A DNA stretch of 64,000 nt from an uncultured Chloroflexia bacterium (GCA_963774265.1 CAVZDU010000003.1:384001-448000), one strand, 5' to 3'; counted from the stretch's first letter, positions 1-34,641 are shown. A program made the numbers and translations. Notes: generated from the sequence alone by a model not told the origin.

Positions 1-896
1 GTCTTAAAGGGGGAGGTGGAGGTCGTCGGACAGGGCAAGGTGGTCAGAGTCCAGGCTGGTGAGGGCACATATGTCCTTAAGGATAAACCTCCGTTTCCGC
101 CGATTTGTGCGCATTTGGGGGACGTGAATGGATGGCTGGACAAACAACTGGGCACAGGATCGATCAAAGCCTTGGGTGAGCTTGTCGCAGGATGGAAGCA
201 GGAATCCTGTGCTGCCGCAACTGCAGCGGCGCCGGTTGCGGTGTACACCAGCCAGCCTCAGGCCCTTCCTTTGTCCGAGGGCATGATCAAGGTTGAAGCT
301 GGCGCCTATACGGTCGGCAGCACGCATCGGACGAGTTTCATATTCCTCCAATACAGAAGAAGCTGCCGACCTTCTGGATCGACATTCACGAAGTGACAAA
401 TGCGCAATATGAAGCGTTCTCAACCAGACCGGCCATCCGAAACCCGCTTCTTGGCCGGCAGGATAATCACCCGGTCAAGGGTGTCACCTGGGACGATGCG
501 GTTGCCTATTGCGCTTGGGCCAACAAGCGCTTGCCGTCTGAGGCCGAATGGGAAGTGGCCGCCCGGGGACCCAGCGCGGATCCGCCGTTGTATCCCTGGG
601 GTAGCGATCCGGAGGACGGTGGGAAGGTTGACTATCTCCCCCGCACCGAAACCTATGAAGTCGGCAGCGTTGCCTTTAACATGAGCCCCTTCGGTGTCTA
701 TGACATGGCCGGCAATGTCTGGGAGTGGGTGGGTGACCCATACTACCCCGTATCGGAAGGCATGAAGATCGTGCGAGGCGGCCGCTACGGGCGGATCAGG
801 GATATGGCTTACCGCCAGCAAGCAGAACCCAAGAGCGGACGTTTCGTCCCCTATGCCGGTTTTCGCTGTGCGGCCGATCAGGTGGAAGGAGAGTGA
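1..896 (+). CDS. Formylglycine-generating-enzyme (FGE-sulfatase/SUMF1) domain protein; 5' end probably outside window; frameshifted
   Basis: ORFs 16..396 and 393..896. Motifs VTNAQY, HPVKGVTWDDAVAYCAW, RLPSEAEWEVAARG, YPWG, DMAGNVWEW, GFRCA. Confidence 0.85.
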
Positions 897-899
897 GGG

Positions 900-2585
900 A
901 TGAAAAGGTCTTTTCGACTCTGGAGAGAGCATGGGTGCTGTTTCTCGTCTTAGCAGTCAGCAGTTGCACCGGTATGCAGTTCAACCGGCGCCAACCGGGG
1001 CTAAAGCTGTTGTAAGTCCTGCGCCGACAGGCAGATCCGGTCCGGCAGCTTCGGCGACAGCCCCGGCTGCAGCATCGGGTCCGAGGGCTTCCGCAACGCC
1101 GGCTTCGGCGCCGGCATGGGCGCTACTCCTGCCGCGATGGGTGAATCCGCATCCGCCGTGGCAGCCGCGCCTGTCAAGCAGGCAGTCGCCCAGAAGGGCG
1201 TGCTGTATCAGGATGATTTCACGGATCCGAAGAGTGGTTGGCCGAACAGTCTGGAGTATGGCAACTACTACATTGGCTATCATGAGCCGAATCACTACCA
1301 CGTGGAAGTCCATGTGCCGAACGATCGGGCGGTGGTGCCGTGCCGAAGCAGACCTTCGGCGACTTCACGATGGAGACGAAGGTCTGGGCCGATCCGAACA
1401 ACACAGCCAAGACCGGCGATTTCCGTTACGGTCTGGTCTTCCGGCGGTCGGGCAACCAGTACTATGCGTTCGTGGTCTCGCCGCGCACCAAGACCTGGTA
1501 TGTGCTGAAGAGTTCTCCGGGCGGTCTGGTGGACTCTGAAGAAAGGCAGCAATGATTCGATCCAGGGTCTGACGGCCGACGACACCTTGCGCGTGGATGC
1601 CAAGGGGTCGACCTTCTTCTTCCACATCAACGATCAGGAGCGTCGGCCAGGTCAGCGATGCCGACTACGCCAGCGGCGAGGCGGGCTTCCTGGTCGAGAC
1701 GCAGGACAGCCCCCGCGCCCACATCCATTACGGCACAACCACGATCCGCGAGGTCGAGACTGCTCAGCCTTCAGCGAGCATCCTGTATCGGGATGATTTC
1801 ACGGATCCTGAAGAGTGGTTGGCCGAACAGTGTGGAGTATGACAACTACTACATTGGCTATCATGAGCCGAACCACTACCACGTGGAAGTCCATGTGCCG
1901 AACGACCGGGCGGTGGTGCCGTGCCGAAGCAGACCTTCGCCGACTTCACGATGGAGACGAAGGTCAGGACCGATCCGAACAACACAGCCAAGACCGGCGA
2001 TTTCCGTTACGGTCTGGTCTTTCGTCGTTCGGGCAACCAGTACTATGCGTTCGTGGTCTCGCCGCGCACCAAGAGCTGGTATGTGCTGAAGAGTTCTCCG
2101 AGCGGTCTGGTGACCCTGAAGCAAGGCACGCAATGATTCGATCCAGGGTCTGACGGCTGACGACACCTTGCGCGTGGATGCCAAGGGGTCGACCTTCTTC
2201 TTCCACATCAACGATCAGGAGCGTCGGCCAGGTCAGCGATGCCGACTACGCCAGCGGCGAGGCAGGGTTCCTGGTCGAGACGCAGGACAGCCCGCGCGCC
2301 CACATCCATTACGGCACAACCACGATCCGCGAGGTCGAAACCCCACAGCTTGTGTGCACGGTAACCGCGTACGCGCTCAATGTTCGGAGCGGGCCAGGCA
2401 TGACGTACCCTTCGCTGGTCGTCATGCGAAGCGGCGCTCAATTCGAGCCGCTTGCCCGCGACGCTGTTGGATCATGGATCAATGTGCGTGTCATAAGTGG
2501 CGATATGAAGGGTTGGATTTCAAGCGCGCCAGCGTTCGTGACCTGTAACATGGCGGTTAACGACCTGGCGGTGCGCCAACCATGA
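900..2585 (+). CDS. Putative lipoprotein: Ala/Pro linker, two tandem ConA-like (DUF1080-type) domains, C-terminal SH3b; frameshifted
   Basis: ATG at 900; lipobox-like VLFLVLAVSSC in a shifted frame; DDFTDP.SGW...YGLVFR...GEAGF domain twice; LNVRSGPGMTY and GWIS SH3 motifs. Confidence 0.7.
1203..2339 (+). repeat. Near-identical ~580-bp tandem duplication (1203-~1760 and 1783-~2339)
   Basis: Direct comparison, e.g. GGATGATTTCACGGATCC at 1211 and 1791; ACGATCCGCGAGGTCGA ends both copies. Confidence 0.95.
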
Positions 2586-4631
2586 CTGAGTTCGCCGACC
2601 TGGAGATTGGGCTGCACCGTCGAGATGCCAGCGTCTACGTCATCGAGTTTCGTTTCAGCCAGCCCAACAGCGAAGCCGATGTGCGTCTTGATCAGGGCCA
2701 ATCGGCTCAGGCGGCTTTTGACCTCGGCTGAACTCATCAGCCTGGTCTACGACCCTGCGGCTTACGGACAAAACCTGACACAGTCCTTCTTCGCGGAGCC
2801 CGCCGTCCAGACCGCGTTCGTGCAGGCGCGTGCCAGCGCCCAATCGCTTGGCGCGCCTCTGCGCGTCCGGCTGCTGATCGGCGCCAGTGCCGGCGAGCTG
2901 CAGGCTCTGCATTGGGAGTTGCTGGCTGATCCGCAAGGGAACAGCCCGCTCTCTACCAGCGAGAACCTGCTTTTTTCTCGCTATCTGAGCAGCCTGGATT
3001 GGCGCCCCGTTCGACTGCGCGCCAAAGGTGAGCTGCGGGCTCTCGTCGTGGTTGCGAACCCATCCAACCTCTCCGACTATGGCCTGACGCCGATCGACGT
3101 GGCCGGGGAGCTGGTCCGGGCACGCGATGGGCTCGGCGAGATTCCCATCACCCCCTTGCCCGACTCGGATGGCGTCCGGCGGGCCACTTTGAACAATCTG
3201 GTCGCGCTGCTGCGCGAGACCGAGTACGATATTCTCTACCTGGTGTGCCACGGCGCCCTGGTCAAGTCGGAACCCTGGCTTTGGCTGGAAGACGATCAGG
3301 GTAAAGTGGCGCGCGCTTCGGGCGTCGAATTGGTTACTCGTCTTGGCGAATTGACGACGCGTCCTCGCTTGCTCGTGCTGGCCTCTTGCGAGAGCGCGGG
3401 CGACGGCTCCGGAGATGCGCTTGCTGCCCTCGGACCTCGATTCGCCGAGGCCGGCATCCCGGCGGTGCTGGCGATGCAGGGCAAGATCAGCGTGCAGACG
3501 TTGTCGCAGTTCATGCCGGTGTTTTTCCATGAGCTGCAACGTGACGGTCAGATCGACCGGGCAGTGGCGGTGGCGCGGGGCGCGGTTCGCCAGCGGCCCG
3601 ATCATTGGATGCCGGCTTTGTTCATGCGCCTCAAAAGCGGGCGCATCTGGTATGTTCCCGGTTTCGCCGACGAGCAGGAAGACTTTGAAAAATGGTCCAG
3701 CCTGTCCGGTTTCGTCCACGACCGGACCTGTACGCCGATCCTGGGACCCGGGCTAATCGACAGTATCATCGGCTCCCGGCGCGACATCGCGGTTCGCTGG
3801 GCCGAGCGACACGGCTTCCCCCTGGCCAGCCAGGACAGGGACAATCTCCAGCAGGTGGCCCAGTATCTTCTGACCCGTCAATCGCCGGCCTATGTGCCGG
3901 TTATCTATCGAGAGGCACTGCGCGAGGCAGTGCTGTGCCGCTTTAGCGCCGCACTACCCGCAGAGCTGCAGCAGGTCGCCACCTGGTCAACTCCTCAGTT
4001 GCAGCAGGCGCTCGGGTTGGTGTCTGACCGTTATTCGATGGACAACCCATCCGAGCCTTATGACTTGCTGGCGCGGTTGCGCTTGCCGATTTACGTCACC
4101 ACCTCGACACTCGATTTCATGACCCAGGCCCTGGTCGGGGCCGGCGCTGAGCCGGTCGTGCGGATCTGCCCATGGAACAAGTGGATCCCAAAGGAAAAGG
4201 CCATCTACGAAGACGAACCCACTCCGGAAAGGCCGCTGGTATATCATCTGTTCGGCCACTTGAGCGTGCCGAGCTCGCTCGTGCTCGCCGAGGACACGTT
4301 CTTCGATTATCTGATCGGAGTGACACAGAACAAGAGCCTGATCCCCAGCGCAGTGCGGGCAGCCCTAAGCAACACCTCCCTCTTGTTTCTCGGCTTCCAG
4401 ATGGACGACTGGGAGTTCCGGGTCTTTTTCCGTTTTCTCATAGGGCAGGAAGGGAAGGAAATGCTCAAGCTGTACAGCCATGCTGCGGCGCAGATCGAGC
4501 CGGAAGAGACCCGCATCCTGGATCTCAAGCGCGCCCGCAAGTACCTGGAAGAGTACTTCGAAAGCGAGCACATCGCTATCTACTGGGGCAGCACCGAGGA
4601 ATTCCTGAAAGCGCTATGGCAACATCTGTAG
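2582..4631 (+). CDS. CHAT (caspase-HetF) protease fused to C-terminal SIR2-like domain
   Basis: ATG 2582 (MTEFADLEIGLHRR) overlaps the upstream stop and joins ORF 2607..4631 by a frameshift near 2725. CHAT: LHWELL, LYLVCHG, VLASCES, VLAMQ. SIR2-like: PILGPGL, IYVTTS, VYHLFG, LLFLGF. Confidence 0.85.
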
Positions 4632-7600
4632 GTGAGCCCAATCCATATATCGGCCCGCGCGCCTTCCAATTGGGCGAGCGCATCTATGGCCGGGAGCACG
4701 AAGCCAGCCAGTTGGTCAACCTGATCATCGCTGAACGGGTCGTGCTGCTTCATTCCCCTTCCGGCGCGGGCAAGACCTCCCTGATCCAGGCCGCCCTGAT
4801 CCCAAGATTGCTGAAGAGCAGGTTCCAGGTGTTGCCTGTGGTGCGCGTCAATCTGGCTTCGCCGATTCGAAGGACCGGGACCCTGAATCCAACCGCTATG
4901 TCTACAGCGCTCTGCTGTCTCTGGAAGAAGGGCTGTCCCCCGGCCAGCAAGTTGGGTCAGCCGATCTGGCCCGGATGAGTCTCTCGGACTATCTGGCACA
5001 GCGGCCAGGCCGGAAGGCGCACTCGACATCCAGGTGCTCATCTTCGACCAGTTCGAGGAAATCCTCACCCTGGATCCCACGGACCTGGCTGCCAAGCAGG
5101 AGTTTTTCAGGCAGCTGGGCGATGCGCTGGCCGCGCCCAAGCGCTGGGCGCTGTTTTCCATGCGCGAGGATCATGTTGCGGCCCTCGATCCGTACAAGCT
5201 GCCTATCCCGAGCCTCTTGGCGAACACATTCCGACTCGACCTGCTGGGCCTGGAGGCGGCTCGCCAGGCGATCCAGCGACCGGCCCTGCAAGCCGGGGTC
5301 GAGTTCGAGGACGCGGCGGTTGAAAAACTGGTGGATGATCTGCGCCGGGTGCGCGTGCAGCAGCCGGATGGTTCGGTGGCGCCACAGCTGGGCCCACACG
5401 TCGAGCCGGTGCAGCTCCAAGTGGTTTGCCATCGACTGTGGGAAACCCCGCGTCCCGCCATGGGACGGATCACCGAGCAGGACCTCGCGGCGTTCGGGCA
5501 GGTGGACCAATCGTTGGTCGACCAGTCCCTGGCAGAGTACTATGCCGAGCGGGTGGCGGCTGTCGCGGCCGAAACCGGGACAAGCGAGCGCAGCATCCGG
5601 GAATGGTTCAATCGCCGGCTGATCACCGAGCAGGGCGTGCGCGGCACGGTGCTGATGGGAAAGGAACGAAGCGGCAGCTTGGACAACCGTGCTATCCGGT
5701 CCTGGTCGATGCCTATCTGGTGCGAGGCGAGAAACGCGGCGGGGCCACCTGGTTCGAGCTGTCCCACGATCGACTGATCGGACCGGTTCGCGGTGGATAA
5801 TGCTGCATGGTTCAAGGCCAACCTGAGCCTGGTCCAGCAGCGCGCCGACGTGTGGGAACAACAGGACCGGCCAGAGAGCCTGCTGCTGCGCGGGCAGGAG
5901 CTAGCGCAGGCCAGGTTGTGGGCGGAGGACCATCAGGCGGAGTTGCTGCCCTCCGAGGTGGATTACCTGGCCGGCAGCCAGGAGCAGGCTATCCGTGCCT
6001 TACGCCTGAGGCGACGCAACCAGGTCATTTTGGTGCTGGGAATAGCGTCGATGCTGCTTGCCTTCGTGGCTTCGCTAGCCTTCAGGACGGCAGCCCGTGA
6101 GCGGGACTTGGCCCGACGCCAGGAACGGCTGGCGCGTGCGGGCCAGTTGGCGGCGCAGTCGCAGGCCGCCCTGCAAGCGTTTCCGCCTCGCAGCATGTTA
6201 TTGGCCGTCGAGGCCCTGAGCGTTACGCTCAAGGCCGGTGAGCCGCGCCTGGCGAATGCCGAAAATGCTCTGCGCGGTGCTCTCAGCGATCCCCATGGGA
6301 TACCCTTGCCCGGTCACACGGGTGAAATCAAGGCCCTGGCCTTCAGCCCGGAGTGCGGCGGCTCACTCAGTGCGCCCGGCGGAGCTGTCCCTGGGACAGC
6401 GGCGCGGTGTGGACACTGGTTGGCCACCGGCAGCGATGACAATACCGTCCGGTTGTGGTCCATCGACGCCACGGATGGGGCCGCGAGTCCACTCATCCTG
6501 TCAGGCCACGAGAACCGCGTCACCGCCCTGGCCTTCAGCCCGGAGGGCCGTTGGCTGGCCTCAGGGAGCGCGGATCAGACCCTCCGGCTCTGGGACCTGC
6601 CGCGCCGCGGATCCCGCTGCGAATCCCCTGGTTCTGAACAGCCAGGGTGGTGACGTGTATGCATTGGCCTTCAGCCCGGAGGGCCGTTGGTTGGCCGCCG
6701 GCGGCCTCGACGGAAGGGTGCAGTTGTGGGACATGGCCGCGCCTGTAGCGGGAGCCACGCCGGTCATCCTATCCGGCCACCAGGGCTCGATCCTCATACT
6801 CGCCTTCAGCCCTGGCGGTCACTGGCTGGCAGCAGGCAGCGATGACAGGACCGTCCGGCTCTGGGACATGACCGCCGGGAATGTCGATGCGTCCCTGAGA
6901 GTTCTGCGCGGGCATGAGGGCGTGATCACCAGCCTGGCCTTCAGCGCAGACGGACGGTGGCTGGCCACCGGCAGTCGAGACAAGACGGCCAGGCTGTGGG
7001 ACCTGGCCGCGGCCGATCCGGAGGCTCAGCCGCGCGTTTTGCGCGGGCACAGCGATTGGGTCAACGCCCTCGCATTCAGCCCGGAGTGCGACCGCCTGCG
7101 CGAAGGGTCAGCGGATTCGTGTGTGCAATGGCTCGCGACCGGGAGCGGCGACAAAACCGTCATGCTGTGGGACCTGAGTGCTCCGGAGGCGGTCGCCTCT
7201 CCACGGGTTCTCACGGGTCACGAGGGGGCTATCAACACCCTCGCCTTCAGCCCCGAGGGTCGTTGGTTGGCGACCGGCAGTACGGACAAGACTGCTCGAC
7301 TGTGGGACCTGCGTGCGGGAGACCCCGGCCCGGCCCCAGTTGTTTTGCGCGGACATGAAGATTGGGTCAATACCCTCGCCTTCAGTCCGTGGTGCTACAA
7401 CCCGCCTGGGGCCTCCGGCGAAGCAGTCCTGGGGACAGGGGACGGGTGCCCGCGTCTGTTGGCCACCGGCAGCAAGGACATGACCACGCGGTTGTGGGTC
7501 GTGGGCGCCGTCGACCCGACCGCGGATCCCATCGTTTTGAACAGTCACAAGGACCAGGTCAACACCCTGGCATTTGACCCGGACGGACGTTGGCTGGCGA

Positions 7601-8874
7601 CCGGTGGGGGCGATCCGGCCGGATCGCCGGGCGGCGACAATACCGACAATGCCGTTCGGCTGTGGGATGTGGGAGCCGCTGGCCCGGCCGCGGCTCCCAT
7701 CCTCCTGAGCGGCCATGATAAGTGGATCAGCACGCTCGCCTTTAGCCCGAGGTGCGGCGCCCCATTCGGAGGGTCAGCGGCGCGGTGTGTGCAATGGCTT
7801 GCAACCGGCAGCGGAGACAGTACCGTCAGGTTGTGGGACCTAAGCGCCGGGGATGGTGTCGCCTCGCCCCGCGTCCTGACCGGCCATGCAGGGCCTATCA
7901 CTGCTCTCGCCTTCAGCCCACAGTGCGCCAACTCAACCGGAGCGACAAGCGTGCCAGCCCAGGGGTCAGCGGAGCAGTGCGCCCGCTGGCTGGCGACCGG
8001 CAGCCAGGACAAGACCGCGCGGCTCTGGAACCTGTCAGCCGCGGGCCCGGTCGGAGACGCACGCGTCTTGGCTGGCCACGAATCGATCGTCAGGGCGTTG
8101 GCGATCAGCCCGGATGGACGCTGGCTGGCCACCAACAGCGACTACACCACTTATTTGTGGGACCTCACCGCGCTGGGCGCGGATCCAATCAGGCCGGCGC
8201 ACACCCTGCACGAACACAGCGATTTCGTCACCAGTCTCGCCTTCAGTCCCGACAGCCGCTGGCTGGCCACCGGAGGTGGGAGCAGCGACAAGACGATCCG
8301 GGTATGGGACATGCGCGCTGCCAACCCCGCGGCCAATCCCAAAATCCTAACCGGTCCCCAGGCTGAGGTTAGCGTGCTGGCCTTCAGCCCGGGGTGCCCT
8401 GGCTCATCCCAAGCGCCGGCGGGGGGGTGCGGGCGCTGGCTGGCCGCTGGCAGCAAGGATAAGATAGTCCTGGTGTGGCCTGTTGGCGAGGACGGTCCGG
8501 GCGGGGAGCCGCTCGTCCTGCGCGGCCACTCGGGGTCGATCACCGCCCTGGCCTTTAGCACAGACGGCAATTGGCTTGCCACCGGCAGCGATGATGAGAC
8601 GGCCAGGCTGTGGGATCTGCATTCCCCGAACACTTCGGCCCAGTCTGCCGTGTTAGGGGGCCACGCGGCAGGGGTCCTCACCCTGGCTTTTGACCCGGAG
8701 GGCCGCTGGCTGGCCACAGGCAGCCAGGACCACACCGTTCGATTGTGGTCCTTGTCCCTGGACAACCTGATCAGCCTGGCCTGTTCTGGTGCGGGGCGGA
8801 ATCTCACCCAGGAGGAATGGGTGGAGTTCTTCCCCGGCGAGACCTACCGCAAGACCTGCACCCAGTGGCCCTGA
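4616..8874 (+). CDS. nSTAND1-type NTPase, transmembrane helix and 16 WD40 repeats (NLR-like receptor); several frameshifts
   Basis: NPYIGPRAF..GRE, Walker A SPSGAGKTS, Walker B LIFDQFEE, LQVVC..LW, ELSHDRL, TM VILVLGIASMLLAFVASLAF, 16 GH..AFSP..WLAT..LWD repeats, C-terminal C..AGRNLTQEEW..C cap. Confidence 0.9.
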
Positions 8875-8900
8875 CTTTGCCCGGCACCCGCCATCGGCCG

Positions 8901-10334
8901 TCAGGCGCGGTTCTCCACGTTCTGCCCTGTCGATAGGCGCACGGCCGGATCACCGATAATGGCGTAGCCGCGCGCATCATTGTTGGCCATCCACATGTGG
9001 GCCAACTCGTAGGGGTCGACCTTCAACCCCGCTTCGATCTCTTCCAGCTCATCGGTCAGCACCGTCGACAGCTCGGCCCAGCGTTGATTGAAGTATTCGA
9101 GCGCTGAGCCGATGGGGTGGCCGTCGAGCAGGCGCTGGAGCGTACTCTCGAAGACGGTTGTCTGCGCTCCCGCATCCGGCCAATCGAAGGAAAAGGACCA
9201 GGCGCGTTCGATGTGGCCGACCACTGCGAGCGCGCCGCCGCGGGGGTGGGATAGCATTTTCTTCGGCAGCTCCGCGGTAAAGGAGAATGGCGCGATGGGC
9301 CTCGGCTGCGCGAAGGCCTGTTTCGAATACTCGTCCACCCTGGGCGTGCCCGCCCCATAACATGCGAAGAAGAAGGCCACCATGCCCAGAAGGTTGGCGC
9401 TTTCAGCCAGGTCTTCGCCGGCAAAATAGTGGTCGCGTGAGATCGGCCGCCTGCCCCAGGCCTCTGGCCCAGGCCAATCCTGGCAAAGCAGAGCGCCCTG
9501 GTGCTGCATCTGACGCGGGTCGTCGAACGGAAACTCCATCCCGTGGCTCCCGGTCATGAGCAGGGCGGGCGCTTCGGGTCCCCCCAGAAGTGCCTGTAGT
9601 CGCGCCTTGGTCGCGCCATCCCGCAGGACCGACCGGATGTCCCAACCGGAACTCTTCGCACTGAAGGCCTTGTAGAGAGGTTCGATGAGGTTGCCGGTGG
9701 AGAGCGTCGTTGCACGGTCGCCGGGGTTGGCGACTCCGAAAAATGTGGCGGTGCGGGGCGGCGTGGTGTCAAGTTTTTCCGCGGCGACCACGCTGCCCGC
9801 ATAGCTGGCATACTCCTGTAATGTGTCAAAATCGAGACGGCCGACGGCATGTTGGACATCCAGCTCGTATTGAAACCGATAGGGGATCTCTTCAGGATGA
9901 CCGACAATCAAGAGGTAATAGGGAACCTTGTCAGGGTCGACCGGTCCCGGGCCAGCCCCGTAACGGCCGAGAAACCTCGATTTGGTGTCCGCGCCGCGGC
10001 GATAACCCTCCGCGCCGCTGAAGAGGCGAAAGTGGGGGCCGGCTTGCGTTTTGCGGAGCGCGAGGAGGTCTGTCAACGCCTCCTCGATGGCCGGGTCGGC
10101 GTCATCCGCGAAGATGATCCCCCAACCGGCCTCATCCAGCTTCTTGGGGTCGATCCCTTCCTTGAGGCCACGGTTCTCTTCGCTTTCGGTCAAGTGATAG
10201 CGAAGCTCCTTTGAATTCTCAGGTGTCCCAAGGCGCAGGATGACCGCCGCAAGTTCTTCGCCCGTCATGGGCGGTATTCCGTAGTCGCCGGTGGCGCCAT
10301 TGACGCCATTGAAGACGAGCTGCTTCTCGGACAT
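8901..10334 (-). CDS. Clan CD cysteine peptidase (C25/gingipain-caspase-like fold), no signal peptide
   Basis: Intact 477-aa ORF with PYYLLIVG, VGRL, His motif LMTGSHG, Cys motif FFACYG and terminal IIGDPA. Confidence 0.75.
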   Translation of the reverse strand: MSEKQLVFNGVNGATGDYGIPPMTGEELAAVILRLGTPENSKELRYHLTESEENRGLKEGIDPKKLDEAGWGIIFADDADPAIEEALTDLLALRKTQAGPHFRLFSGAEGYRRGADTKSRFLGRYGAGPGPVDPDKVPYYLLIVGHPEEIPYRFQYELDVQHAVGRLDFDTLQEYASYAGSVVAAEKLDTTPPRTATFFGVANPGDRATTLSTGNLIEPLYKAFSAKSSGWDIRSVLRDGATKARLQALLGGPEAPALLMTGSHGMEFPFDDPRQMQHQGALLCQDWPGPEAWGRRPISRDHYFAGEDLAESANLLGMVAFFFACYGAGTPRVDEYSKQAFAQPRPIAPFSFTAELPKKMLSHPRGGALAVVGHIERAWSFSFDWPDAGAQTTVFESTLQRLLDGHPIGSALEYFNQRWAELSTVLTDELEEIEAGLKVDPYELAHMWMANNDARGYAIIGDPAVRLSTGQNVENRA

Positions 10335-14058: not shown

Positions 14059-14130
14059 TCCAGGCGCGCAGCTGATCCAGCCATGCGCGACCTTGACACG
14101 GGGCGGGCGCGGCCGTGATATAATGCGTTT

Positions 14131-14448
14131 ATGAATGATGAGGTTGCGTTTCATGTTCGGTCTGCGTTGCGCGAGGCTCACCCGACCTGGTCCATCCGCG
14201 CGGATCCGCCTGCGCTGACGCCTGAACGAATCGCCGCGGATGTGGCCGCGGCCTTCGCCGATCTGGATTGGCGACAGATCGAGCTCTCGCGCCAGTTCAC
14301 TCCCGCACAGAGGCTGCGACAGGTGGCCTCATTAAATGACTTCCTGCGCCACGCGGTGCTGGCCGCGATCCGGAGGGAAGAGCCGGACATCAGCACGGAG
14401 GCGCTGCAGCGCAGATATCTGGAGCGCATTGGGATACTGATCCCATGA
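14131..14448 (+). CDS. Small protein, putative antitoxin partner of the downstream nucleotidyltransferase
   Basis: 105-aa ORF with ATGA overlap to the next gene; TG-n-TATAAT lies 6 nt before the ATG. Confidence 0.6.
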   Translation: MNDEVAFHVRSALREAHPTWSIRADPPALTPERIAADVAAAFADLDWRQIELSRQFTPAQRLRQVASLNDFLRHAVLAAIRREEPDISTEALQRRYLERIGILIP

Positions 14449-24128: not shown

Positions 24129-25415
24129 CTAGACCCCGCGGCGCTGCAACAACCCGCGCAGGTCTGCGATTTCCGATTCCAGTTGCCCGATCTCGGTGAG
24201 CACCTGCGGCGAGGCAGACAGCAATTCCTGGCCTCGCACCTTCTCGAGCTCGACCAGCCGCTCGCGTCGCAGATTGAGCTGCATGACGAGCGAACTGACA
24301 TCGTGCTCGCGCTGCCTGGCAAACACAGCCCGCATGGCGTCCTTCGACGTCTGCAGCGGGGGGACGCCGGCCAGCGTCGCGGCCTGAGTCTCGAGCCAGC
24401 CCCGCAGGAACTGGTTGCCGATGGCGTAACGCGTGCCGAGCCTGCGCAGGTAGCCCAGGTTGATGAGATTGGTCACGCGCTGCTTCAACTCGGCCGGCTG
24501 CTCGAAGTCCATCCGCTCCAGCTCGCGCGGATCTGCCCTGTGGATGCGATAGATGCTCAGGAACAGCTCACGGTCGGTTTCGGTCAACTGGCGGAAATCA
24601 TACACCAAAAAGCTCGCAACCATCGAATCGACGTACAGGTCAGCGTCGTCAGGCATGCGGAGCTCCCCATCCTCGCCTAACAGACGGGAGCAGAGGAGTT
24701 GCAGGAGCAGGGGGTGGTTGTTTGTGGCATCTTTGATGGCCGCCACGACTGCGGCTGCGGCCTTGACTCTTCCACCGCGCGGGGCGTGCGATTGAATGAT
24801 AAGGCTGCGCGCGTCCGGCGCGGACAGGCTGCCCAGCATGTAGGACATATCGAACCCGCTGAGGAAGGGGGAGGTGGTCCAGTCGCGACACACATCGTAG
24901 AGGCGGTAGATTCTGCGGGTCGACACCATGACCGACCGCACGCCCGCGCCTGCGGTGAGCAGGCAGTGCAGCCGCTGCATGGCCGCCGGCTCGTTGGCCG
25001 CGATGTCCAACAAAGCCTCGGTTTCGTCGCACAGCAGGAGCAGCTCTCGACCCGACCGCGCGGCCAGCCGCCGCAACTGCGCGAGCAAGGTCAGTGCATC
25101 CTCCTCGTCTGCGAGCGAGGGCGGCATCCCAAGCGGCGAGAACCGGTCGGGATGATCGCGGACCACTTCCGCTAGGCAGCAACCCAGGTCTGCGTAGGAG
25201 TGGCAGCCCTGCATGTCCAGGTACAGCGGGACGAGCCGGCCCCGGCGCGAGGTCAGCAGCTCGAGCTGGCGCAGCAGCGAAGTCTTGCCGATACATCGAT
25301 TGCCGACCACCCAGTGCGCGCGTGCGCCACTCTCCAGGAGCGTGGCAAGGAGCTCCTCCCGGCCATAGTATTCCCGGCCGGTGACGAAGGCTCCGATGAC
25401 ATACGGGTTGCGCAC
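24129..25415 (-). CDS. STAND-like AAA ATPase with C-terminal helical tail
   Basis: NPYVIG..YYGRE, Walker A GNRCIGKTS, Walker B LLCDE, HPLLLQLLC; GTG start after GAGG. Confidence 0.8.
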   Translation of the reverse strand: MRNPYVIGAFVTGREYYGREELLATLLESGARAHWVVGNRCIGKTSLLRQLELLTSRRGRLVPLYLDMQGCHSYADLGCCLAEVVRDHPDRFSPLGMPPSLADEEDALTLLAQLRRLAARSGRELLLLCDETEALLDIAANEPAAMQRLHCLLTAGAGVRSVMVSTRRIYRLYDVCRDWTTSPFLSGFDMSYMLGSLSAPDARSLIIQSHAPRGGRVKAAAAVVAAIKDATNNHPLLLQLLCSRLLGEDGELRMPDDADLYVDSMVASFLVYDFRQLTETDRELFLSIYRIHRADPRELERMDFEQPAELKQRVTNLINLGYLRRLGTRYAIGNQFLRGWLETQAATLAGVPPLQTSKDAMRAVFARQREHDVSSLVMQLNLRRERLVELEKVRGQELLSASPQVLTEIGQLESEIADLRGLLQRRGV

Positions 25416-25432
25416 GGCGACCTCGCGGTCTG

Positions 25433-27772
25433 TTAACGACCGGGCGACGATGTGGCCGCGGCGGCCGCGTCGTCCGCGGTGATGGCGATGCGCCCCGCGG
25501 CCAGGGCGCGCAGCACGGAGGTCGCCGCGACCTCCAGCAGCCGTTCGGGCCGGCCCGCAGCCTCTTCGACGACCCGGTCGACGGCGCCCGGCGCCCATGT
25601 ATAGACATCGCGCACCGGTTCGACCAACAGTTCTCGCGCTGCCGCGTCGCTCAACGGCTGGAGGTCCACCTGGCGGAACAGATCGCCCAGATCACCCAAA
25701 GACCGCGGGGCACGCTCGCCGGCCAGCACTGCGCGCAGTTGGCCTCCCATCGTCCCGACCAGGAGGCCACGGATGTTCTCCCGTGCGCGGGGCGGGTAGC
25801 TTTCGAGCGCCTGGGCTTCATCCAGCAGCAGCACGACACGAACCCGGCGCGGGGCAACCACCGGCTGCAGGGAGGCGAGGAGGAGTTTCAGGTCGGCGTG
25901 AAATTCGCGCGCGGCGTAGGCGGTTGACGAGGTTTCGTGCCACCCTAACCGCGGCTGCTCGCCCACCATCAGCGGTTCCATCCCCGCAATGACGCGATCC
26001 ATCAGGAGGTGGAGAATCACCTCCGGCCGCGTGGACGAGAGATCGAGAGTCGCCGGGATGGAGATCAGCTCGCCGCCTTGTTGGGACCTCAGCGCTGCAG
26101 CCACTCGCCGTAAGGCCGGCGTCTTCCCCATCCCTCTGGCCCCCACCAGCAGCACGTTCCCGCCCTGCAGCGCCGCTACCACCTCATGCGCGGGCCCGTC
26201 AGGCAGCCGCGCGTCGATGGCCCTGCCCGCCGCTGCGTCGTGCGCGTAGGGGTTGAATCCCTGCGCCACCACCGTCTGCACCCGGGCCAGCTCGGCCGCG
26301 GCAGCCCGCTCGGCAGCCCGGCGTCGCGCCGTGATCGCCGCGTTCGCGGTTACGCCGGCAACCAGCAACAGCACAATAGCGCCCATGATGGGATAGGCCA
26401 CTTCGCTTCGCAGGGCAACGCCACCCGGGAGGTACACCAGGCGAGGCGTGACCACCGTCACATCCGCCGGCACGGACCGGTTGAAGGCTTCGTCCTGCAC
26501 CCACACATGCAGGACCGTATTCCCTGCTGCAAGCCGCCGACCGCTGTACGCGGTGATCGCCTGGGCACGGTGCACCAGCGGCGCGTCATCCACCCCGTCC
26601 AGCCGCGTGAGGATGATCAGCCGGTCAGAGGGCGTAGTGCCGTCAGATGCGCGCACCTCCACGCGTTCGATGCGGTCCCGCGCCAGCTCAACTGCCCCCT
26701 TCTCAGGTCGCATACCGTTGACCGCGATAATCTCGACCCTGGGCGAGGACCGCTCGGGCCGGTATTCGACCAGCCCGACCCCTGTGCCAATCCAGAGCGT
26801 TCCATCCAGGGCAGGTGCGAAGGCAGTCGCCGAGGGGTCCGGCAAAAGCCTGGCGTCATAGTGCTGCCAGACCGTCGATTCGCTGGCCAACACACCCTCG
26901 CGCGTCCCCAACCAGAGCCGGCCGTTGCTAAAGCCAAGCGCCGTGACACCCGTCGAGACGGCCGCAGGCAGTTCCATGCGCTCCCAAACCACCCCGCGCG
27001 TCCGCCACAACTCGTCCTCTTCAGCCCAGACGTAAAGCATCCTCTCGGGGCTTTCGACAATGCCGCGGATGCGAGCTGCGCCGGGGCTTTCCTCAGCCGT
27101 TATGGCGGTCCACTTCCCCCCGGAGAGCTGCCACAGCCCGCGCTCCGTGCCGGCCCACAGCGTCCCATCGCGGCGAGCCTGGAGTGCGGTCACCCGCTGC
27201 CCCGCGAGCTCGTCCACAGATTGGAGGGCGCCGTCTTCGTGCCACCGGCTCAGGCCGGCGGCCGTGCCCATGTAGACCGCACCGTCCGGACCCTGCGCAA
27301 AAGCCAGGACGGGCAGGCTGGCCAGCCCCGCGACATCGAGCCGCCGGAACGCCATCGCATCAGGCGGTGCATCCGCGGGTGCGTAGCCCAGTCCGCCGCC
27401 GGTGGCAACCCACACCCGGCCCTGCTCATCCTCGTACAAGTTCAGGACGCGATTATCGGGCAGTCCATCGCGCGTGGTCAGCGATTTCCAGACCCCGCCA
27501 TCCCAAACAGCCGCGCCCCGCTCTTCTATGCCCGCCCAGAGGCGGCCCGTGCGATCCACGAGGAGCGCGTTGATCCGCTGACCGGCCACAGGTGCGGTTG
27601 GCACAATCCGCCACTCGCCGCCGGCGACCGGGGGTGTACGATGACTCAACGTATCGAGCGAGGAGCCAGCCTGGCTGGAGAGGATTCCGGCCCCGGACAG
27701 CATCAGTGCGCCCAACAGCGCACTGGCGGCCAGGCCGGTCTTGAATAGAAGGGGACGATCAATGAGTCGCAT
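25433..27772 (-). CDS. Reg_prop beta-propeller, TM helix and STAND-like ATPase
   Basis: N-terminal hydrophobic segment, DGLPDNRV and W.GT..GL blades, TM YPIMGAIVLLLVAGV, NPY, GARGMGKT, LLLDEA. Confidence 0.8.
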   Translation of the reverse strand: MRLIDRPLLFKTGLAASALLGALMLSGAGILSSQAGSSLDTLSHRTPPVAGGEWRIVPTAPVAGQRINALLVDRTGRLWAGIEERGAAVWDGGVWKSLTTRDGLPDNRVLNLYEDEQGRVWVATGGGLGYAPADAPPDAMAFRRLDVAGLASLPVLAFAQGPDGAVYMGTAAGLSRWHEDGALQSVDELAGQRVTALQARRDGTLWAGTERGLWQLSGGKWTAITAEESPGAARIRGIVESPERMLYVWAEEDELWRTRGVVWERMELPAAVSTGVTALGFSNGRLWLGTREGVLASESTVWQHYDARLLPDPSATAFAPALDGTLWIGTGVGLVEYRPERSSPRVEIIAVNGMRPEKGAVELARDRIERVEVRASDGTTPSDRLIILTRLDGVDDAPLVHRAQAITAYSGRRLAAGNTVLHVWVQDEAFNRSVPADVTVVTPRLVYLPGGVALRSEVAYPIMGAIVLLLVAGVTANAAITARRRAAERAAAAELARVQTVVAQGFNPYAHDAAAGRAIDARLPDGPAHEVVAALQGGNVLLVGARGMGKTPALRRVAAALRSQQGGELISIPATLDLSSTRPEVILHLLMDRVIAGMEPLMVGEQPRLGWHETSSTAYAAREFHADLKLLLASLQPVVAPRRVRVVLLLDEAQALESYPPRARENIRGLLVGTMGGQLRAVLAGERAPRSLGDLGDLFRQVDLQPLSDAAARELLVEPVRDVYTWAPGAVDRVVEEAAGRPERLLEVAATSVLRALAAGRIAITADDAAAAATSSPGR

Positions 27773-27845
27773 GGCATTGCTTCCGATCGTGGACGCGGTC
27801 CGATGGAGCGATCATAGCACAAGCCACGACAAAAAGCAACTATAT

Positions 27846-30945: not shown

Positions 30946-33900
30946 CTACTTGGCTTTCAGAGGGATGTTGTCCATTGGGGTGAGGGTGCCATCGATGACG
31001 GTTAGCTCATGGCCACAGGCGGTCGTGAATGCATTGTTGTACGAGTCACCGCTGTAGGCCGCCTGCCAGTAGAACTTGCCCGGGATCAAGGTCCCGTAGC
31101 CGGTGAGCGTCGCAGCTGCACGGGTGGCGCCCGCGTATGTGATCGGGACGATCTCGCTGTAGGGCGAGTTGGGCGAGCCGGGCATGAGCCAGGGATCCTG
31201 GCAGTTCTCATCCTTGAATAGCGTGAAGGTGACCTTGGCCGGGCTGTCGGCCAGGGGGCGGATGCCGGTGATGTGCAAGGTGTCGTGCAGCACCCAGGAC
31301 ATCGCCGTGGTGCCCGAGGCCTTGATTTCGATGCCGCCGCGGTTGATGATGCGGTCCAGCAGCCTGCCGAGGTTGAGCCCCGCTTTGGACTTCGTGACGG
31401 TCGTGGTCCCGCCGATTGCGGTGATCTCGTGGCCACAGCCGGTCTTGAATCCGGGGTTGTTCGGGTCACCGGTGTAGGTCGCCTGCCAGTAGAAGGTGCC
31501 CGAGTAGGGCGCACCCTCGACCGGGGCCGGTATGGGGTAGCCGGTGAGCGTCCGGGCCTTGCCGGTGGAACCCTCATACGTGATCGGGACTGTTTCGGCA
31601 TAGGGCGAGCCCTCCAAGAGCCAGGGCGCCTCGCAGTTCTTATCCTTGAACAGCGTGAAGGTGACCTTGGCCGGGCTGCCGGCCAGTGGGCGGATGTCCT
31701 CGATGGTCAACTCATCATGCAGCACCCAGGACATCGCCGTGGCGCCGCTGGGCGTGGCCGGGCTGTCGGAGTTGGTGATAGTGCAGGTCTTCTCGTCGCC
31801 GGGCAGGAGGGCGACCGCGCCGTCCGGTGTGCAGTCGCCGGACCAGGCGGAGGCCGTGTAACCCGCGGGGCCGGTCTCGCTGACGTCGTACGTGCCGACA
31901 TCGAAGCCGGTGAAGGCATTCCAGGCGACGTCCGTGCTGACCGCGCCATCCGTCACCGCAGCCTGGAAATCACCCGCGGTGGCCGTGCCGCCGTACTTTA
32001 TATTCATTGCCTTGACGAGCTCGAGCTTGGGCTGCACGTCGCTGTTCGTGATGGTGCAGGTCTTCTCGTCACCGGAATGGAGGGTGATCGTGCCGTCCGC
32101 TGCGCAGTCGCCGGTCCAGGCGGACGCCGTGTAACCCGCTGGGCCGGTCTCGCTGGCGACATAGCTGCCAACCTTGAGGCCGGCGAAGGTGTTCCAGGCC
32201 ACGTCCGTGCTGACCGCGCCATCCGAGACCGCAGCCTTGAAGTCAGCCGCGGTGGCTGTGCCGCCGTACTTGATGTCCATCATTTTGACCAGCTTGAGCC
32301 TGGGCTGCAAGTCGCTGTTCGTAATGGTGCAGGTCTTCTCGTCGCCGGGCTGGAGGGTGATCGTGCCGTCCGCGTCGCAGTCGCCGGTCCAGTCGGAAGC
32401 CGTGTAGCCCGCCGGGCCGGTTTCGCTGGCGACATAGCTGCCGGCCTTGAGGCCGACGAAGGTATCCCAGGCCACGTCTGTGCTGGTGGCAGCGCCACCC
32501 GACACCGCAGCCGTGAAGTCGGCCGCGGTGGCTGTGCCGCCGTACTGGATGTTCATCATCTTGACGAGCTTGAGCCTGGGCTGGATGTCGTCGTTGGTGA
32601 TGGTGCAGGTGATGTCGTCGCCATAGTTGATCGCGACCCGGCTATCCGTGACGACAACCTCGTCGGTGGTTCCGGTCTTCACACAGGTCCATGCGCTGGC
32701 AGTGTAGCCATCAGGGACGACAGGGTCGCTCCCCACGTATGTCTCGCTCAGCGTATAGGTGTCGAGCTTGAAGTTCGGCCACAAGACAGCGCTGTCGACC
32801 GGCGACGTCCCTGTGAGGTCGGTGGGTTCGTCGGTGCGGGCGCCCGCAGCCCCGAGCGTCCAGTCCGCCACGACAGCCGTGCCGCCGTCATCGTTGGACA
32901 CCTCCTTGACCAGGTGCAGCTGCGGAATGGCCCGGTTGGTAAAGATGCAGATGACATCGTCATCGGGCTTGAGGGGCAGGTTCACGGGTCCGGGTCCGGC
33001 GCCCGAGGCGAACGCCGCGGTTTCATCGTTTTTGGTGCAGGCGTAGGAGATATCGTAGGCGCTGAGGTCGGTGCCTATGTCGGTGCCTGTGTCGGTGCCT
33101 GTGTCGGTGCCGGCGCCCGTGCCGGGATGCGCCGCCTCGCCCACCGTGTGATCCGCGCCAGGAGCTGACTGCGTGCCGGCGCTCACCGCAATGCGTCCCG
33201 TGGAGCCTCCGTCGCCGACGCCAGCGCTCCCCGAGGCAACTGCGCCGTCGATGAGCAGGTCGAACAGCCCCGGATTGCTCTGGGGGATCAGGTCCTTGAC
33301 GACCTCAAGGTGAGCGACCTTCGGGACGGTCAGGCCGCTGATTGGAACATAGGAGCAGTTGCACTTCGCCTTGTTGTTCGGTTTGGTATCCGTGACCGAT
33401 AGGCAGACGGTGCTCGCGTTGGCCTGGTTGTCCCAGCTCACGCAGGTGCTGACATCGGCAACTCCGTCTGCACCGGGTTTGCCGTCCGCGCCCCCGTTAT
33501 CCTGGCATATCACGTCGACCGGCACTGGACCGGTATCTGCATAAGCTCCGGCAACCAGTAGCTCGCCGACATCGCGGAAAGTGTGTTCCCCCTGCTTGAT
33601 GTCGCCGCACAGGTCCCCCGCGTTTTCCGCGGTCAGGAAGGGTCCGCCGCCGGTGTAGACGGGCTGGCCGCCCTCTGCGGGCGGGGTGAACAGCTTGCCC
33701 GGGTCATAGCCGGTGCTCGCCAGCGGGGGCGCCAGGTAGTCCCGGTAACACATGCCGGTGAGCGCGTTCCCGCCGTCCTGCGCGATGAACAGGCCGATGT
33801 CGTAGCGTTCATGGGCGCCCCCCACCAGCTCGGCCTGCAGCTTAACCTGGAGTTTTTCGCCGGGCAGGCACTCTTCAGGGCCCTCGACCAGGTTGTACTG

Positions 33901-34116
33901 GCTGACGCGAACGTCTTCCGCCGTGCAGTTGAGCTTATCGGTATCGCTGAAAACGTCTTGCATGCAGTTCCCCGCAGCAGCGGCCTCTGGCACCGCCGGA
34001 GCAAGGGGGGCCGGGGCAACGGTGACCGCAGCGCATCCTGCGCACAGCAGGGTCGGAATGAGGAAAAGAATCCAGGCACGCCTGGTTGCGGGAAATCGTC
34101 GGGTGGGGAGTTGCAT
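30946..34116 (-). CDS. Large secreted or lipid-anchored surface protein with Ig/prealbumin-like repeats
   Basis: ATG 34116 after AAGGAGG; LLCAGC lipobox; Cys-rich N-domain; three ~91-aa repeats ending TCTITN; two C-terminal repeats (FYWQA.Y.GD). Confidence 0.8.
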   Translation of the reverse strand: MQLPTRRFPATRRAWILFLIPTLLCAGCAAVTVAPAPLAPAVPEAAAAGNCMQDVFSDTDKLNCTAEDVRVSQYNLVEGPEECLPGEKLQVKLQAELVGGAHERYDIGLFIAQDGGNALTGMCYRDYLAPPLASTGYDPGKLFTPPAEGGQPVYTGGGPFLTAENAGDLCGDIKQGEHTFRDVGELLVAGAYADTGPVPVDVICQDNGGADGKPGADGVADVSTCVSWDNQANASTVCLSVTDTKPNNKAKCNCSYVPISGLTVPKVAHLEVVKDLIPQSNPGLFDLLIDGAVASGSAGVGDGGSTGRIAVSAGTQSAPGADHTVGEAAHPGTGAGTDTGTDTGTDIGTDLSAYDISYACTKNDETAAFASGAGPGPVNLPLKPDDDVICIFTNRAIPQLHLVKEVSNDDGGTAVVADWTLGAAGARTDEPTDLTGTSPVDSAVLWPNFKLDTYTLSETYVGSDPVVPDGYTASAWTCVKTGTTDEVVVTDSRVAINYGDDITCTITNDDIQPRLKLVKMMNIQYGGTATAADFTAAVSGGAATSTDVAWDTFVGLKAGSYVASETGPAGYTASDWTGDCDADGTITLQPGDEKTCTITNSDLQPRLKLVKMMDIKYGGTATAADFKAAVSDGAVSTDVAWNTFAGLKVGSYVASETGPAGYTASAWTGDCAADGTITLHSGDEKTCTITNSDVQPKLELVKAMNIKYGGTATAGDFQAAVTDGAVSTDVAWNAFTGFDVGTYDVSETGPAGYTASAWSGDCTPDGAVALLPGDEKTCTITNSDSPATPSGATAMSWVLHDELTIEDIRPLAGSPAKVTFTLFKDKNCEAPWLLEGSPYAETVPITYEGSTGKARTLTGYPIPAPVEGAPYSGTFYWQATYTGDPNNPGFKTGCGHEITAIGGTTTVTKSKAGLNLGRLLDRIINRGGIEIKASGTTAMSWVLHDTLHITGIRPLADSPAKVTFTLFKDENCQDPWLMPGSPNSPYSEIVPITYAGATRAAATLTGYGTLIPGKFYWQAAYSGDSYNNAFTTACGHELTVIDGTLTPMDNIPLKAK
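31765..32584 (-). repeat. Three ~273-bp tandem domain repeats
   Basis: QP.L.LVK.M.I.YGGTATA.DF...DEKTCTITNSD three times. Confidence 0.9.
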
Positions 34117-34177
34117 TGGGTCCTCCTTAAACTGCTCCGGGAACTTTGACTTGTGGTTACCAGTAAATACTATATCA

Positions 34178-34206
34178 ATTATCGCGCGGGAGCCACGCAT
34201 TGTCAA
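34178..34206 (-). promoter_or_regulatory. Sigma70 promoter of the large lipoprotein gene
   Basis: TTGACA-17-GATAAT. Confidence 0.6.
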
Positions 34207-34224
34207 TAGTGAAAGAGAGATTGA

Positions 34225-34423
34225 TTTTGAACCATTGCATGATTTCCGGAAGGGGCGCACACGGTAGGGGCGCACACGCGGTGGGGGCGCACACACGGTG
34301 GGGGCGCACGCGCGGTGGGGGCGCACACGCGGTAGGGGCGCACGCGCGGTAGGGGCGCACCTGTGTGCGCCCCCGGGGGGGCCGACACGCAGGTCGGCCC
34401 CTACGGCGTCTGCGCCCGGTACG
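34225..34423 (-). repeat. Copy of the RAYT internal loop region, with an inverted REP pair and a 17-bp tandem array
   Basis: 34225-34249 identical to 34895-34919; 34411-34423 identical to 35013-35025; five GGTRGGGGCGCACRCRC units at 34263-34347. Confidence 0.85.
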
Positions 34424-34641
34424 CAGCAGCGCATGCGTGCCGCGCCAGGATCGAGCCGTACCCTTCATCCTGCCTTAGCGGGCTGCAGGAACGGCTAATT
34501 CCCCCTGGCGCGCTGCTGAAGGAGGTCGGCAACACCACGATCGATATCGAGGAACTATGCGAGGCACTGGCCCGGTGAGCGGGCCTGCGGTGCTCACCCT
34601 TTCCTGACGAAACCCCCGGGGTGCTGAGGTCTTTTCTGATT

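Follow-up and report, generated by a model that had tools for sequence, protein, structure and literature searches.

We report the analysis of a gene cluster at the beginning of a 64-kb stretch of DNA from an uncultured Chloroflexia bacterium (the window: the whole of G000:C3:384001-448000, from a 5.5-Mb genome in 10 contigs with 84% completeness), whose proteins have named relatives mainly in the Caldilineaceae and other Chloroflexota. Four co-oriented and coupled genes on the plus strand encode a lipoprotein with an FGE-sulfatase domain, a second lipoprotein with a lectin fold and an SH3 domain, a fusion of a CHAT protease with a SIR2-like domain, and an nSTAND1 NTPase followed by a transmembrane (TM) helix and WD40 repeats; the gene of a His/Cys protease resembling peptidase family C25 is convergent with them (Table 1). 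On balance we favour the reading that the last three of these genes form the core of a conflict system of the nSTAND1 class, serving immunity or programmed cell death, which is present here in a split form and is carried on an accessory island.

The genes of the plus strand are tightly packed. The stop codon of the FGE gene (TGA, 894-896) is followed by the ATG of the lectin gene at 900-902, an ATGA at 2582-2585 joins the lectin gene to the CHAT-SIR2 gene, and the ATG of the STAND gene at 4616 precedes the CHAT-SIR2 stop codon (TAG, 4629-4631); the C25-like gene lies 26 bp from the STAND stop at 8874. This layout of four coupled genes facing a convergent protease gene had been described in an initial annotation of the DNA, every coordinate of which was verified on the sequence. 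Its observations are confirmed and its interpretation is partly supported; the profiles it named (nSTAND1, CHAT, SIR2_2, Peptidase_C25 and FGE-sulfatase) all found a match, that of Peptidase_C25 being marginal.

Table 1. Features of the cluster, with positions counted from the first letter of the window
Feature	Position	Strand	State	Evidence
FGE-sulfatase (C-type-lectin fold) lipoprotein gene, 3' part	1..896	+	frame-broken; starts ~510 bp upstream of the window	Pfam E 3e-39
Lectin/SH3 lipoprotein, one gene: lipobox, Pro/Thr linker, two ConA/galectin-like jelly-rolls, SH3_3	900..2585	+	~10 frameshifts	SH3_3 E 7e-7
Tandem DNA duplication within the lectin gene	~1203-1757 and ~1783-2338	+		96% over 557 bp, 3 gaps, self-blastn
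CHAT and SIR2_2-like fusion gene	2582..4631	+	ATG 2582; one frameshift near 2725	Pfam CHAT (PF12770) E 3e-29; SIR2_2 E 3e-17, 63.4 bits against a 24.5-bit cut-off
nSTAND1 NTPase, single TM helix, ~15 WD40 blades	4616..8874	+	five frameshifts	Pfam; tblastn frame path
Predicted TM helix between NTPase and WD40 region	6024..6083	+		hydropathy scan; conserved in 48/57 homologues
WD40 propeller region	6300..8780	+		Pfam E 4e-135; 13 stretches, and 2 more on the frame piece before it
C25-like (gingipain-fold) cysteine peptidase, 477 amino acids (aa), short core-only form	8901..10334	-	intact	Pfam C25 E 1.7e-5; AF2 (AlphaFold2); Foldseek

The island and its three-gene core

In a second genome of the same genus (G002) the flanks of the cluster, corresponding to window positions -1935 to -801 and 10548 onward, lie ~760 bp apart, so that the five genes amount to a single insertion or deletion (indel) of ~11 kb. 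The block from about -800 to 10,540 is an accessory island. The empty site in G002 holds a 182-aa nitroreductase-like gene (L106, G002:C128, 6908-7453), which is absent from the window.

Among 40 related genomes, full-length orthologues of the CHAT-SIR2 protein were found in four (G022, G014, G033 and G007), and in all four the gene adjoins one for an nSTAND1-WD40 protein. In G014 and G007 that cluster also contains the C25-like gene, co-oriented with the other two; in G022 and G033 it is found on another contig. Counting the source genome, where it is single-copy, it occurs in nine of 41 related genomes, namely in all five with a full CHAT-SIR2 orthologue and in four of the 36 others.

A broader survey was made around the C25-like gene itself, of which 541 loci, at 52-65% identity, were confirmed in species-representative genomes. 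The best 80 of these 541 from named genomes, ~30 of them from Nostocales, were scanned with hidden Markov models derived in this analysis from five orthologues each of the CHAT-SIR2 and STAND proteins. In 57 of the 80 the available flank contains a gene for CHAT, nSTAND1 or both: a fused CHAT-nSTAND1 protein in 30, the split CHAT-SIR2 and nSTAND1 form in 14 (one of them fragmented), another CHAT protein (CHAT-TPR or CHAT-HEAT) in nine and, at a contig end, nSTAND1 only in four. The arrangement is far from chance.

Where the trio of CHAT-SIR2-like, nSTAND1-TM-WD40 and C25-like genes recurs (14 of the 80 loci and two of the four related genomes) it mostly forms one operon, with these genes in this order on one strand; the convergent C25-like gene of the window is an inversion of the usual order. 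In the Cyanobacteria the CHAT, nSTAND1, TM and WD40 parts are united in one chain, with the C25-like neighbour retained, and a third genome of the genus (G001) fuses SIR2_2 directly to nSTAND1. Such fused relatives bear out the earlier view of the locus as a split system, and adjacency at 57 of 80 loci together with the fused forms described below shows that the second clan-CD protease is part of it.

The C25-like protease and its family

The Pfam match of the C25-like protein (24.7 bits against a 23-bit cut-off) covers only its C-terminal part, and the protein has no NCBIfam match and no sequence relative in the PDB. Its AF2 model (pLDDT 75.6, pTM 0.82) places the gingipains RgpB and Kgp at Foldseek ranks 1-5, with E 2e-8 to 5e-7 (2.4e-8 for the top RgpB entry), probability 1.00 and ~440 aligned columns; separase and TPR-CHAT rank after them. 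The gingipains are thus the best structural matches (TM-score 0.45-0.5), at an identity of 12-13% and with the His/Cys dyad conserved. The two dyad residues, H264 and C325, show no variation in any of 12 sequences, and strong conservation extends over the whole core in 120. A conserved loop at residues 34-56, modelled with low confidence, is a candidate site for cleavage by CHAT. Whereas gingipains are secreted virulence proteases, the protein of the window opens directly with a conserved FNG motif and has, by inspection, no hydrophobic N-terminus, signal peptide, pro-domain, Ig-like domain or type IX secretion system tail; it is predicted to be cytoplasmic and appears to be linked to defence.

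The family is large and widespread. At least 6,584 near-length homologues were recovered at E <= 0.001 among 8,000 candidates scored, and the 541 loci come from Chloroflexota, Cyanobacteria, Acidobacteriota, Planctomycetota, Latescibacterota, Thermodesulfobacteriota, Pseudomonadota and further groups. Longer, fused forms number 491 at the same threshold. Among the 120 of these that were listed, the core is followed by TIR_2 in 62 (a hand count), by Trypsin_2 and an endonuclease in 17 and by S8 in seven, and further domains include patatin, KAP NTPase, chitinase, lipase and C14 caspase. Pfam-checked fusions to the receptor itself take the form nSTAND1-C25(-TPR) in P0244 and P0305 and CHAT-nSTAND1-C25, all in one chain, in P0249 and P0356; for P0323 the combination of nSTAND1 and C25 is taken from its domain listing. 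At six Acidobacteriota split loci the third gene encodes a C25-TIR protein. In these architectures the C25-like core thus acts as the fixed module, and the killing domains that it carries or stands beside vary.

Other genes recur beside the C25-like gene. A family of ~446-479 aa stands directly next to it in L029 (8511-9878) and 29 other cyanobacterial loci and also in L095 (11458-12795); two members have no Pfam match and one has no NCBIfam match, and the family may be a further component. A second family, of ~290 aa and with no Pfam match in two members, lies directly downstream at 11 loci, including L024:12878-13678, L035:11866-12768, L040:11971-12849 and L068:8184-8987. Proteins of ~690-1030 aa with SH3_3 and N-acetylmuramidase domains are encoded directly upstream in L032, L046, L074, L028 and L031, and L031, L032, L046 and L079 have a patatin gene immediately downstream. 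NCBIfam names neither the C25-like protein nor the neighbour proteins.

The receptor and its topology

The nSTAND1 family (PF20703) matches the STAND protein of the window on two frame pieces, with E 1e-10 and 2e-16 (42.2 and 60.8 bits against a 27.1-bit cut-off), and its intact orthologues with E 1e-32 to 1e-131. Position 1 of the profile is aligned at residue 10, so that the protein does begin at its NTPase, as had been noted at the outset, and a Walker A loop of the GxxxxGKT type and a Walker B motif, hhhhDQFEE, are present in the translated frames.

Hydrophobic helices were sought in 57 STAND proteins of these loci, that of the window included, and Lys and Arg residues were counted over 15 residues on either side. 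In 48 of the 57, split and fused forms alike, exactly one hydrophobic helix follows the NTPase at a distance of ~50 residues, with a hydropathy of 1.7-3.0 over 19 residues. The mean number of Lys and Arg is 5.7 in the N-terminal flank against 2.7 in the C-terminal flank, the former being the richer in 44 of the 48 proteins and the two being equal in the other four. By the positive-inside rule the flank of a membrane helix that is rich in Lys and Arg is the cytoplasmic one, and the predicted topology with the NTPase in the cytoplasm and the WD40 sensor outside the cell, which the initial annotation had proposed, is therefore supported.

The domain beyond the helix is mostly a WD40 region, and it varies: an FGE-sulfatase domain takes its place in L069 (a split system) and in two L065 proteins (fused), L030 has a weak dCache_1 match (E 6e-5, below cut-off) between two TM helices, and L027 and L049 have a multi-helix region. 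In the protein of the window, six WD40 blades carry loop insertions of 9-21 residues bracketed by Cys, which together account for 12 of its 14 Cys residues; a pattern search found no such loops in the 56 homologues. Disulfides in these loops would fit a location outside the cell, although this is only a hint.

It is conceivable that the hydrophobic segment does not span the membrane at all and that the protein is a cytoplasmic, Apaf-1-like sensor whose WD40 domain binds an intracellular (phage) protein. WD40 propellers are mostly cytoplasmic, which counts in favour of such a sensor, and the TM flanks of the window's own protein are equal in Lys and Arg (5 against 5). The accessible part of the report on cyanobacterial caspase-STAND-WD40 'Apaf-1 orthologues' (PMC12803255; all papers cited here with identifiers are described as far as their accessible text goes) mentions no membrane. 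Against this stand the conserved position and the hydropathy of the helix in 48 of 57 proteins, the Arg-rich N-terminal flank in 44 of 48, the occurrence of an FGE-sulfatase domain or a TM-bracketed Cache-like segment at the same place in sibling proteins, and the six Cys-pair loops of the window's propeller. A cytoplasmic sensor seems to us very unlikely, and the outward-facing topology is retained below.

The CHAT-SIR2-like protein

The N-terminus of the CHAT-SIR2-like protein agrees with the orthologue consensus only in frame 2, from the ATG at 2582, and not in the frame of the long open reading frame (ORF), which reveals the one frameshift in this gene. The His and Cys of the CHAT dyad are invariant in 17 of 17 orthologues, in keeping with the intact HG and C motifs recorded earlier. 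Co-folding the C25-like protein with the CHAT domain (residues 42-356 of the 674-aa reading) scored 0.00 in a run without controls and carries no weight in either direction.

The SIR2-like domain had been taken for part of the effector, a view that is weakened in so far as it implies an NADase. A profile built from the 17 orthologues matches ThsA (E 2e-11) and other SIR2 NADases (E 3e-12 to 4e-8), and the SIR2_2 fold is thus shared with enzymes of the ThsA/DSR2 type, but the canonical catalytic His is missing: at the position of the ThsA His (in the sequence MHG), just before an invariant Gly, there is Phe in 15 orthologues, Gly in one, Asn in one and His in none (N112 and H152 are the catalytic residues of ThsA). 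A His is present three residues before the conserved Gly position in 13 of the 17, and the Asn of the TTN(Y)D motif is kept in 10 of the 17 and replaced by Ser in the protein of the window. The orthologues that lack both the earlier His and the Asn (L026, L036, L052 and L090) are all among the six with a C25-TIR gene. The missing His and the Ser in place of Asn make NADase activity doubtful, and the domain more likely acts between CHAT and the NTPase as a linker or regulator.

The FGE and lectin lipoprotein genes

The lipobox of the window's FGE protein lies upstream of the window; an intact homologue from the same genus, of 562 aa, has one. The lectin gene encodes two tandem domains of ~190 aa, the product of the 557-bp duplication. 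An intact homologue from the same genus (533 aa, AF2 pLDDT 83.7) retrieves BT3469, tandem-repeat galectins, laminin LG4-5 and CBM66 in Foldseek searches, and PF06439 is matched in several homologues of the gene with E 4e-7 to 2e-5; the two lines of evidence show that the lectin fold assigned in the initial annotation is correct.

The further suggestion that the two lipoproteins are co-receptors fared less well. Both genes lie inside the same 11-kb indel as the core, and the ATGA overlap couples them translationally to the CHAT-SIR2 gene; in G001 the same FGE and lectin/SH3 pair stands directly upstream of an SIR2_2-nSTAND1(-HEAT) gene; FGE-sulfatase is, as described above, a fused post-TM sensor in L069 and L065; and secreted PPC or SH3 proteins are encoded in the clusters of L013, L014, L031 and L079. 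The two genes are, however, absent from the other 18 split loci (four related clusters and 14 named ones), the pairing with nSTAND1 is confined to this genus, the pair found in G079 has no CHAT, SIR2 or nSTAND1 gene within ~9 kb, and the lectin family (E <= 1e-20) occurs in only six of 200 other genomes of the class. On this distribution the two genes do not belong to the core. Their presence on the shared island, the ATGA coupling and the use of FGE-sulfatase as a fused sensor elsewhere make a helper role possible, but that they are working co-receptors of the STAND receptor is doubtful.

The secreted proteins of L031 and L079 share homology with the window's lectin gene in the SH3 part only. 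Secreted PPC-domain proteins of ~600 aa lie inside the CHAT-SIR2/STAND clusters of G022 (L013:3513-5285) and G014 (L014:11160-12968). The FGE gene was also considered as the target of a diversity-generating retroelement (DGR), and this was rejected: a genome-wide search with window positions 551-900 (blastn, word size 7) gave no template repeat and only matches of chance size, 27-29 nt, a reverse transcriptase not having been searched for.

Integrity of the reading frames

The genes of the cluster contain ~20 frameshifts in total, spread over four of the five genes. There are at least two in the FGE gene, ~10 in the lectin gene (by eye, in a three-frame reading), one in the CHAT-SIR2 gene and five in the STAND gene, which is not one ORF: tblastn with intact orthologues follows it through frames 2>1>3>2>3>1 between 4616 and 6650, with changes near 4850, 5020, 5700, 5791 and 6630. 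No frameshift was found within the WD40 half or the C25-like gene. GGCC or CCWGG motifs adjoin several of the indel sites; the indels may stem from systematic base-calling error at methylated sites.

We think it likely that the frameshifts are errors of the assembly. The flanking housekeeping genes are broken as well, which makes assembly indels the probable cause: the antiporter gene to the left of the island passes through frames 2>1>3 here and is an intact 528-aa ORF in G002, and the genes for a Cys/Met pyridoxal-phosphate enzyme, a DLH protein and a DUF11 protein in the window are split too.

The other explanation is that the window holds a decaying pseudogene cluster, with real frameshifts, of a system that is functional elsewhere and dead here. 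The concentration of ~20 frameshifts within ~6 kb (the FGE, lectin and CHAT-SIR2 genes and the 5' part of the STAND gene) fits this, as do their absence from the WD40 half and the C25-like gene, a density above that of most of the remaining window, where ORFs of 950-1575 aa stay open, and the position of most junctions outside homopolymers. It is opposed by the broken housekeeping neighbours and by the quality of the source genome, which is in 10 contigs but has 84% completeness. In the long-contig assembly of G001, two copies of a related locus (L104 in G001:C9 and L105 in G001:C22) are 95-97% identical and yet, over 5-7 kb, are separated by 18-26 gaps. In amino-acid identity the frame-broken parts (57-63%) are no further from their orthologues than the CHAT-SIR2 protein (51%). 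Two of the three frame-change sites per lectin repeat, moreover, fall in sequence identical between the copies (1318-1365, 1898-1945, 1630-1680 and 2210-2260), as systematic errors would give. Decay is accordingly the rather less likely of the two, and assembly error remains the explanation that we prefer. The G001 copies themselves have the order FGE, lectin/SH3 and SIR2_2-nSTAND1-HEAT; one of them, on a 15-kb contig, is possibly a haplotig.

Proposed mechanism and function

From these arrangements we infer transmembrane signalling and a protease cascade. The outside propeller would bind an envelope or extracellular cue, whereupon the NTPase would switch and oligomerise at the inner face of the membrane. 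The NTPase assembly would then gather CHAT-SIR2-like molecules and activate CHAT by proximity, a step for which fused relatives, with CHAT and the NTPase in the same chain, provide a parallel. CHAT would act on, or together with, the co-conserved C25-like protease. At this locus the C25-like protease may itself be the executioner, its relatives carrying fused TIR, nuclease, patatin or serine protease domains, and the outcome would be growth arrest or cell death. The two lipoproteins, which presumably arrived with the island, may aid sensing.

A system of this kind might serve not immunity but the developmental or envelope signalling of filamentous bacteria, with proteolysis regulated by a cue from a neighbour or the cell wall and no suicide. 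Filamentous or multicellular lineages, Chloroflexota and Nostocales among them, are the taxa concerned, the sensor is predicted to face outward, lipoproteins bearing lectin, SH3 and FGE domains are encoded alongside, conservation of the C25-like core (52-65% identity across phyla) is unusual for a defence gene, and the nearest NCBIfam match of the CHAT part, a very weak one (E 0.005), is the cell-division protein HetF. The distribution is nevertheless patchy and island-like, nine of 41 relatives having the C25-like gene and the comparison with G002 showing the block to be an indel. Typical killing domains such as TIR, endonuclease and patatin are found fused to the C25-like core, and the sensor domain varies. 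Patchiness, killing-domain fusions and a variable sensor are hallmarks of conflict systems according to the accessible part of PMC7159879. A purely developmental role is in our view unlikely, and we continue to favour a conflict system.

Several findings weigh against the latter. Neither CHAT nor nSTAND1 is present in the available flank of 23 of the 80 C25-like loci, seven of which have full 10-kb flanks, so that the C25-like protease is not tied to CHAT alone; the C25-like genes without CHAT nearby pair with SH3-muramidase or patatin genes. The locus counts are not independent, since they derive from the best 80 of 541 loci and include ~30 from Nostocales. On a tree of the C25-like protein the split label requires 15 changes, a number as low in 209 of 500 shuffles; co-evolution of the C25-like protein with the partner type finds no backing in the tree for this label, which is scattered as shuffled labels are, and the fused label follows the cyanobacterial clade. 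The initial annotation had pointed to Avs- and NLR-related proteins, but no Avs model of PADLOC was matched, the only hits being weak (SAVED_CHAT at best, E 7e-6; ThsA, 3e-5; HEAT-ARM_XIII on the WD40 part), with none for the NTPase and the C25-like protein. The source genome has broken frames in four of the five genes, and this copy may therefore be dead. The charges of the window's own TM flanks are even, and every step of the mechanism set out above rests on inference.

Bacterial STAND and NLR-type receptors have so far been understood as cytoplasmic sensors of phage proteins, and Avs proteins as single cytoplasmic polypeptides that sense them. In the system described here the sensor would lie on the outer side of the membrane, and effector and receptor are separate proteins. 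The locus also draws attention to a large gingipain-fold family that travels with CHAT/STAND receptors and carries TIR, nuclease, patatin and protease domains; this widespread gingipain-fold partner, which appears to be undescribed, is the most interesting feature of the locus. More tentatively, the system may be a membrane-spanning counterpart of the apoptosome with two tiers of protease, in which an outward propeller (or an FGE or Cache-like domain) signals an extracellular or envelope threat through nSTAND1 to a CHAT initiator and on to a gingipain-fold executioner. The executioner would degrade cell proteins or release the TIR, nuclease, lipase or protease fused to it, and would be a modular effector platform common to thousands of systems across Chloroflexota, Cyanobacteria, Acidobacteriota and other phyla. 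If CHAT activates the C25-like family, there would be an initiator/executioner protease cascade behind an Apaf-1-like receptor, which would bear on the origin of caspase cascades.

Comparison with known systems

The nearest relatives in the literature are the nSTAND1 and caspase-STAND conflict systems with TM helices (PMC8195603, PMC7159879), among them the EACC1 system, in which TM helices with extracellular domains follow the caspase-STAND part (PMC7159879), and the cyanobacterial caspase-STAND-WD40 proteins cited above (PMC12803255). The caspase-like (CHAT)-STAND-WD40 systems have the same nSTAND1 family, CHAT effector and WD40 sensor as the window. In contrast to these and to the EACC1 systems, CHAT is found here on a separate polypeptide with a SIR2-like domain, and the C25-like gene is a constant partner. 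The EACC1 gene, a small single-TM gene 5' of the caspase gene, is not present at the locus as judged by gene spacing and with no EACC1 profile run, the genes abutting or overlapping so that there is no room for it. An extracellular WD40 sensor has been described in EsrA1, which senses epibionts (PMC13622651).

The pairing of CHAT with a second clan-CD cysteine protease has its nearest experimentally tested parallel in the SAVED-CHAT/PCaspase system, a hybrid of type III-B CRISPR and CBASS, in which SAVED-CHAT cleaves and activates PCaspase, which then degrades many proteins (10.1101/2023.06.23.546230). PCaspase is a Peptidase C14 with the dyad H79/C146, whereas the protein of the window has a gingipain-like C25 fold, and an identification of the C25-like protein as PCaspase was rejected on that ground. 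The inputs differ likewise, a SAVED sensor of cyclic oligoadenylate in the one case and a STAND receptor in the other, and cleavage is reported for SAVED-CHAT, while CHAT and the C25-like protein are linked by adjacency and, in relatives, by fusion. The protease-effector modules of 10.1101/2025.11.14.688446, for which 'transmembrane STAND ATPases' are listed as sensors, are alike in that a sensor-linked protease stands beside a latent death effector; the ten module families given in the accessible text include no C25-like protein.

Avs proteins, described as single cytoplasmic polypeptides that sense phage proteins (PMC10907252), share with the window the tripartite logic of effector, STAND NTPase and repeat sensor; the system of the window differs from them in being split and, by prediction, membrane-spanning, and in its added protease. 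The same paper reports nSTAND1-FGE (C-type lectin) antigen sensors as DGR targets in multicellular bacteria. nSTAND1 and FGE-sulfatase are shared with these sensors, but in the window the FGE domain is on a separate lipoprotein, and the genome holds no template repeat that the search above could find. Neither 'C25' nor 'gingipain' is mentioned in PMC8195603, PMC7159879 or 10.1101/2025.11.14.688446, and a full-text literature search retrieved no paper that connects a C25-like protease to CHAT, STAND or TIR, although supplements may list the family as 'caspase-like'.

Other features of the window

A second STAND-type locus lies at 24132-27811 on the minus strand, where overlapping ORFs with nSTAND1 (E 2e-7), AAA_22 and Reg_prop repeats probably represent a frame-broken NTPase-repeat gene. 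At 50595-53762 on the plus strand a 1056-aa BTAD-AAA_16-TPR protein is encoded, a STAND regulator of the SARP/MalT-like type. Two very large surface-type proteins are encoded on the minus strand, one with SpaA-like prealbumin-fold repeats (30949-34464) and one with eight DUF11 domains and CARDB (56519-61847), the latter split by a frame change near 61110-61243. A small ORF at 14119-14445 on the plus strand gives a weak match to an Rv0078B-related antitoxin (E 8e-7).

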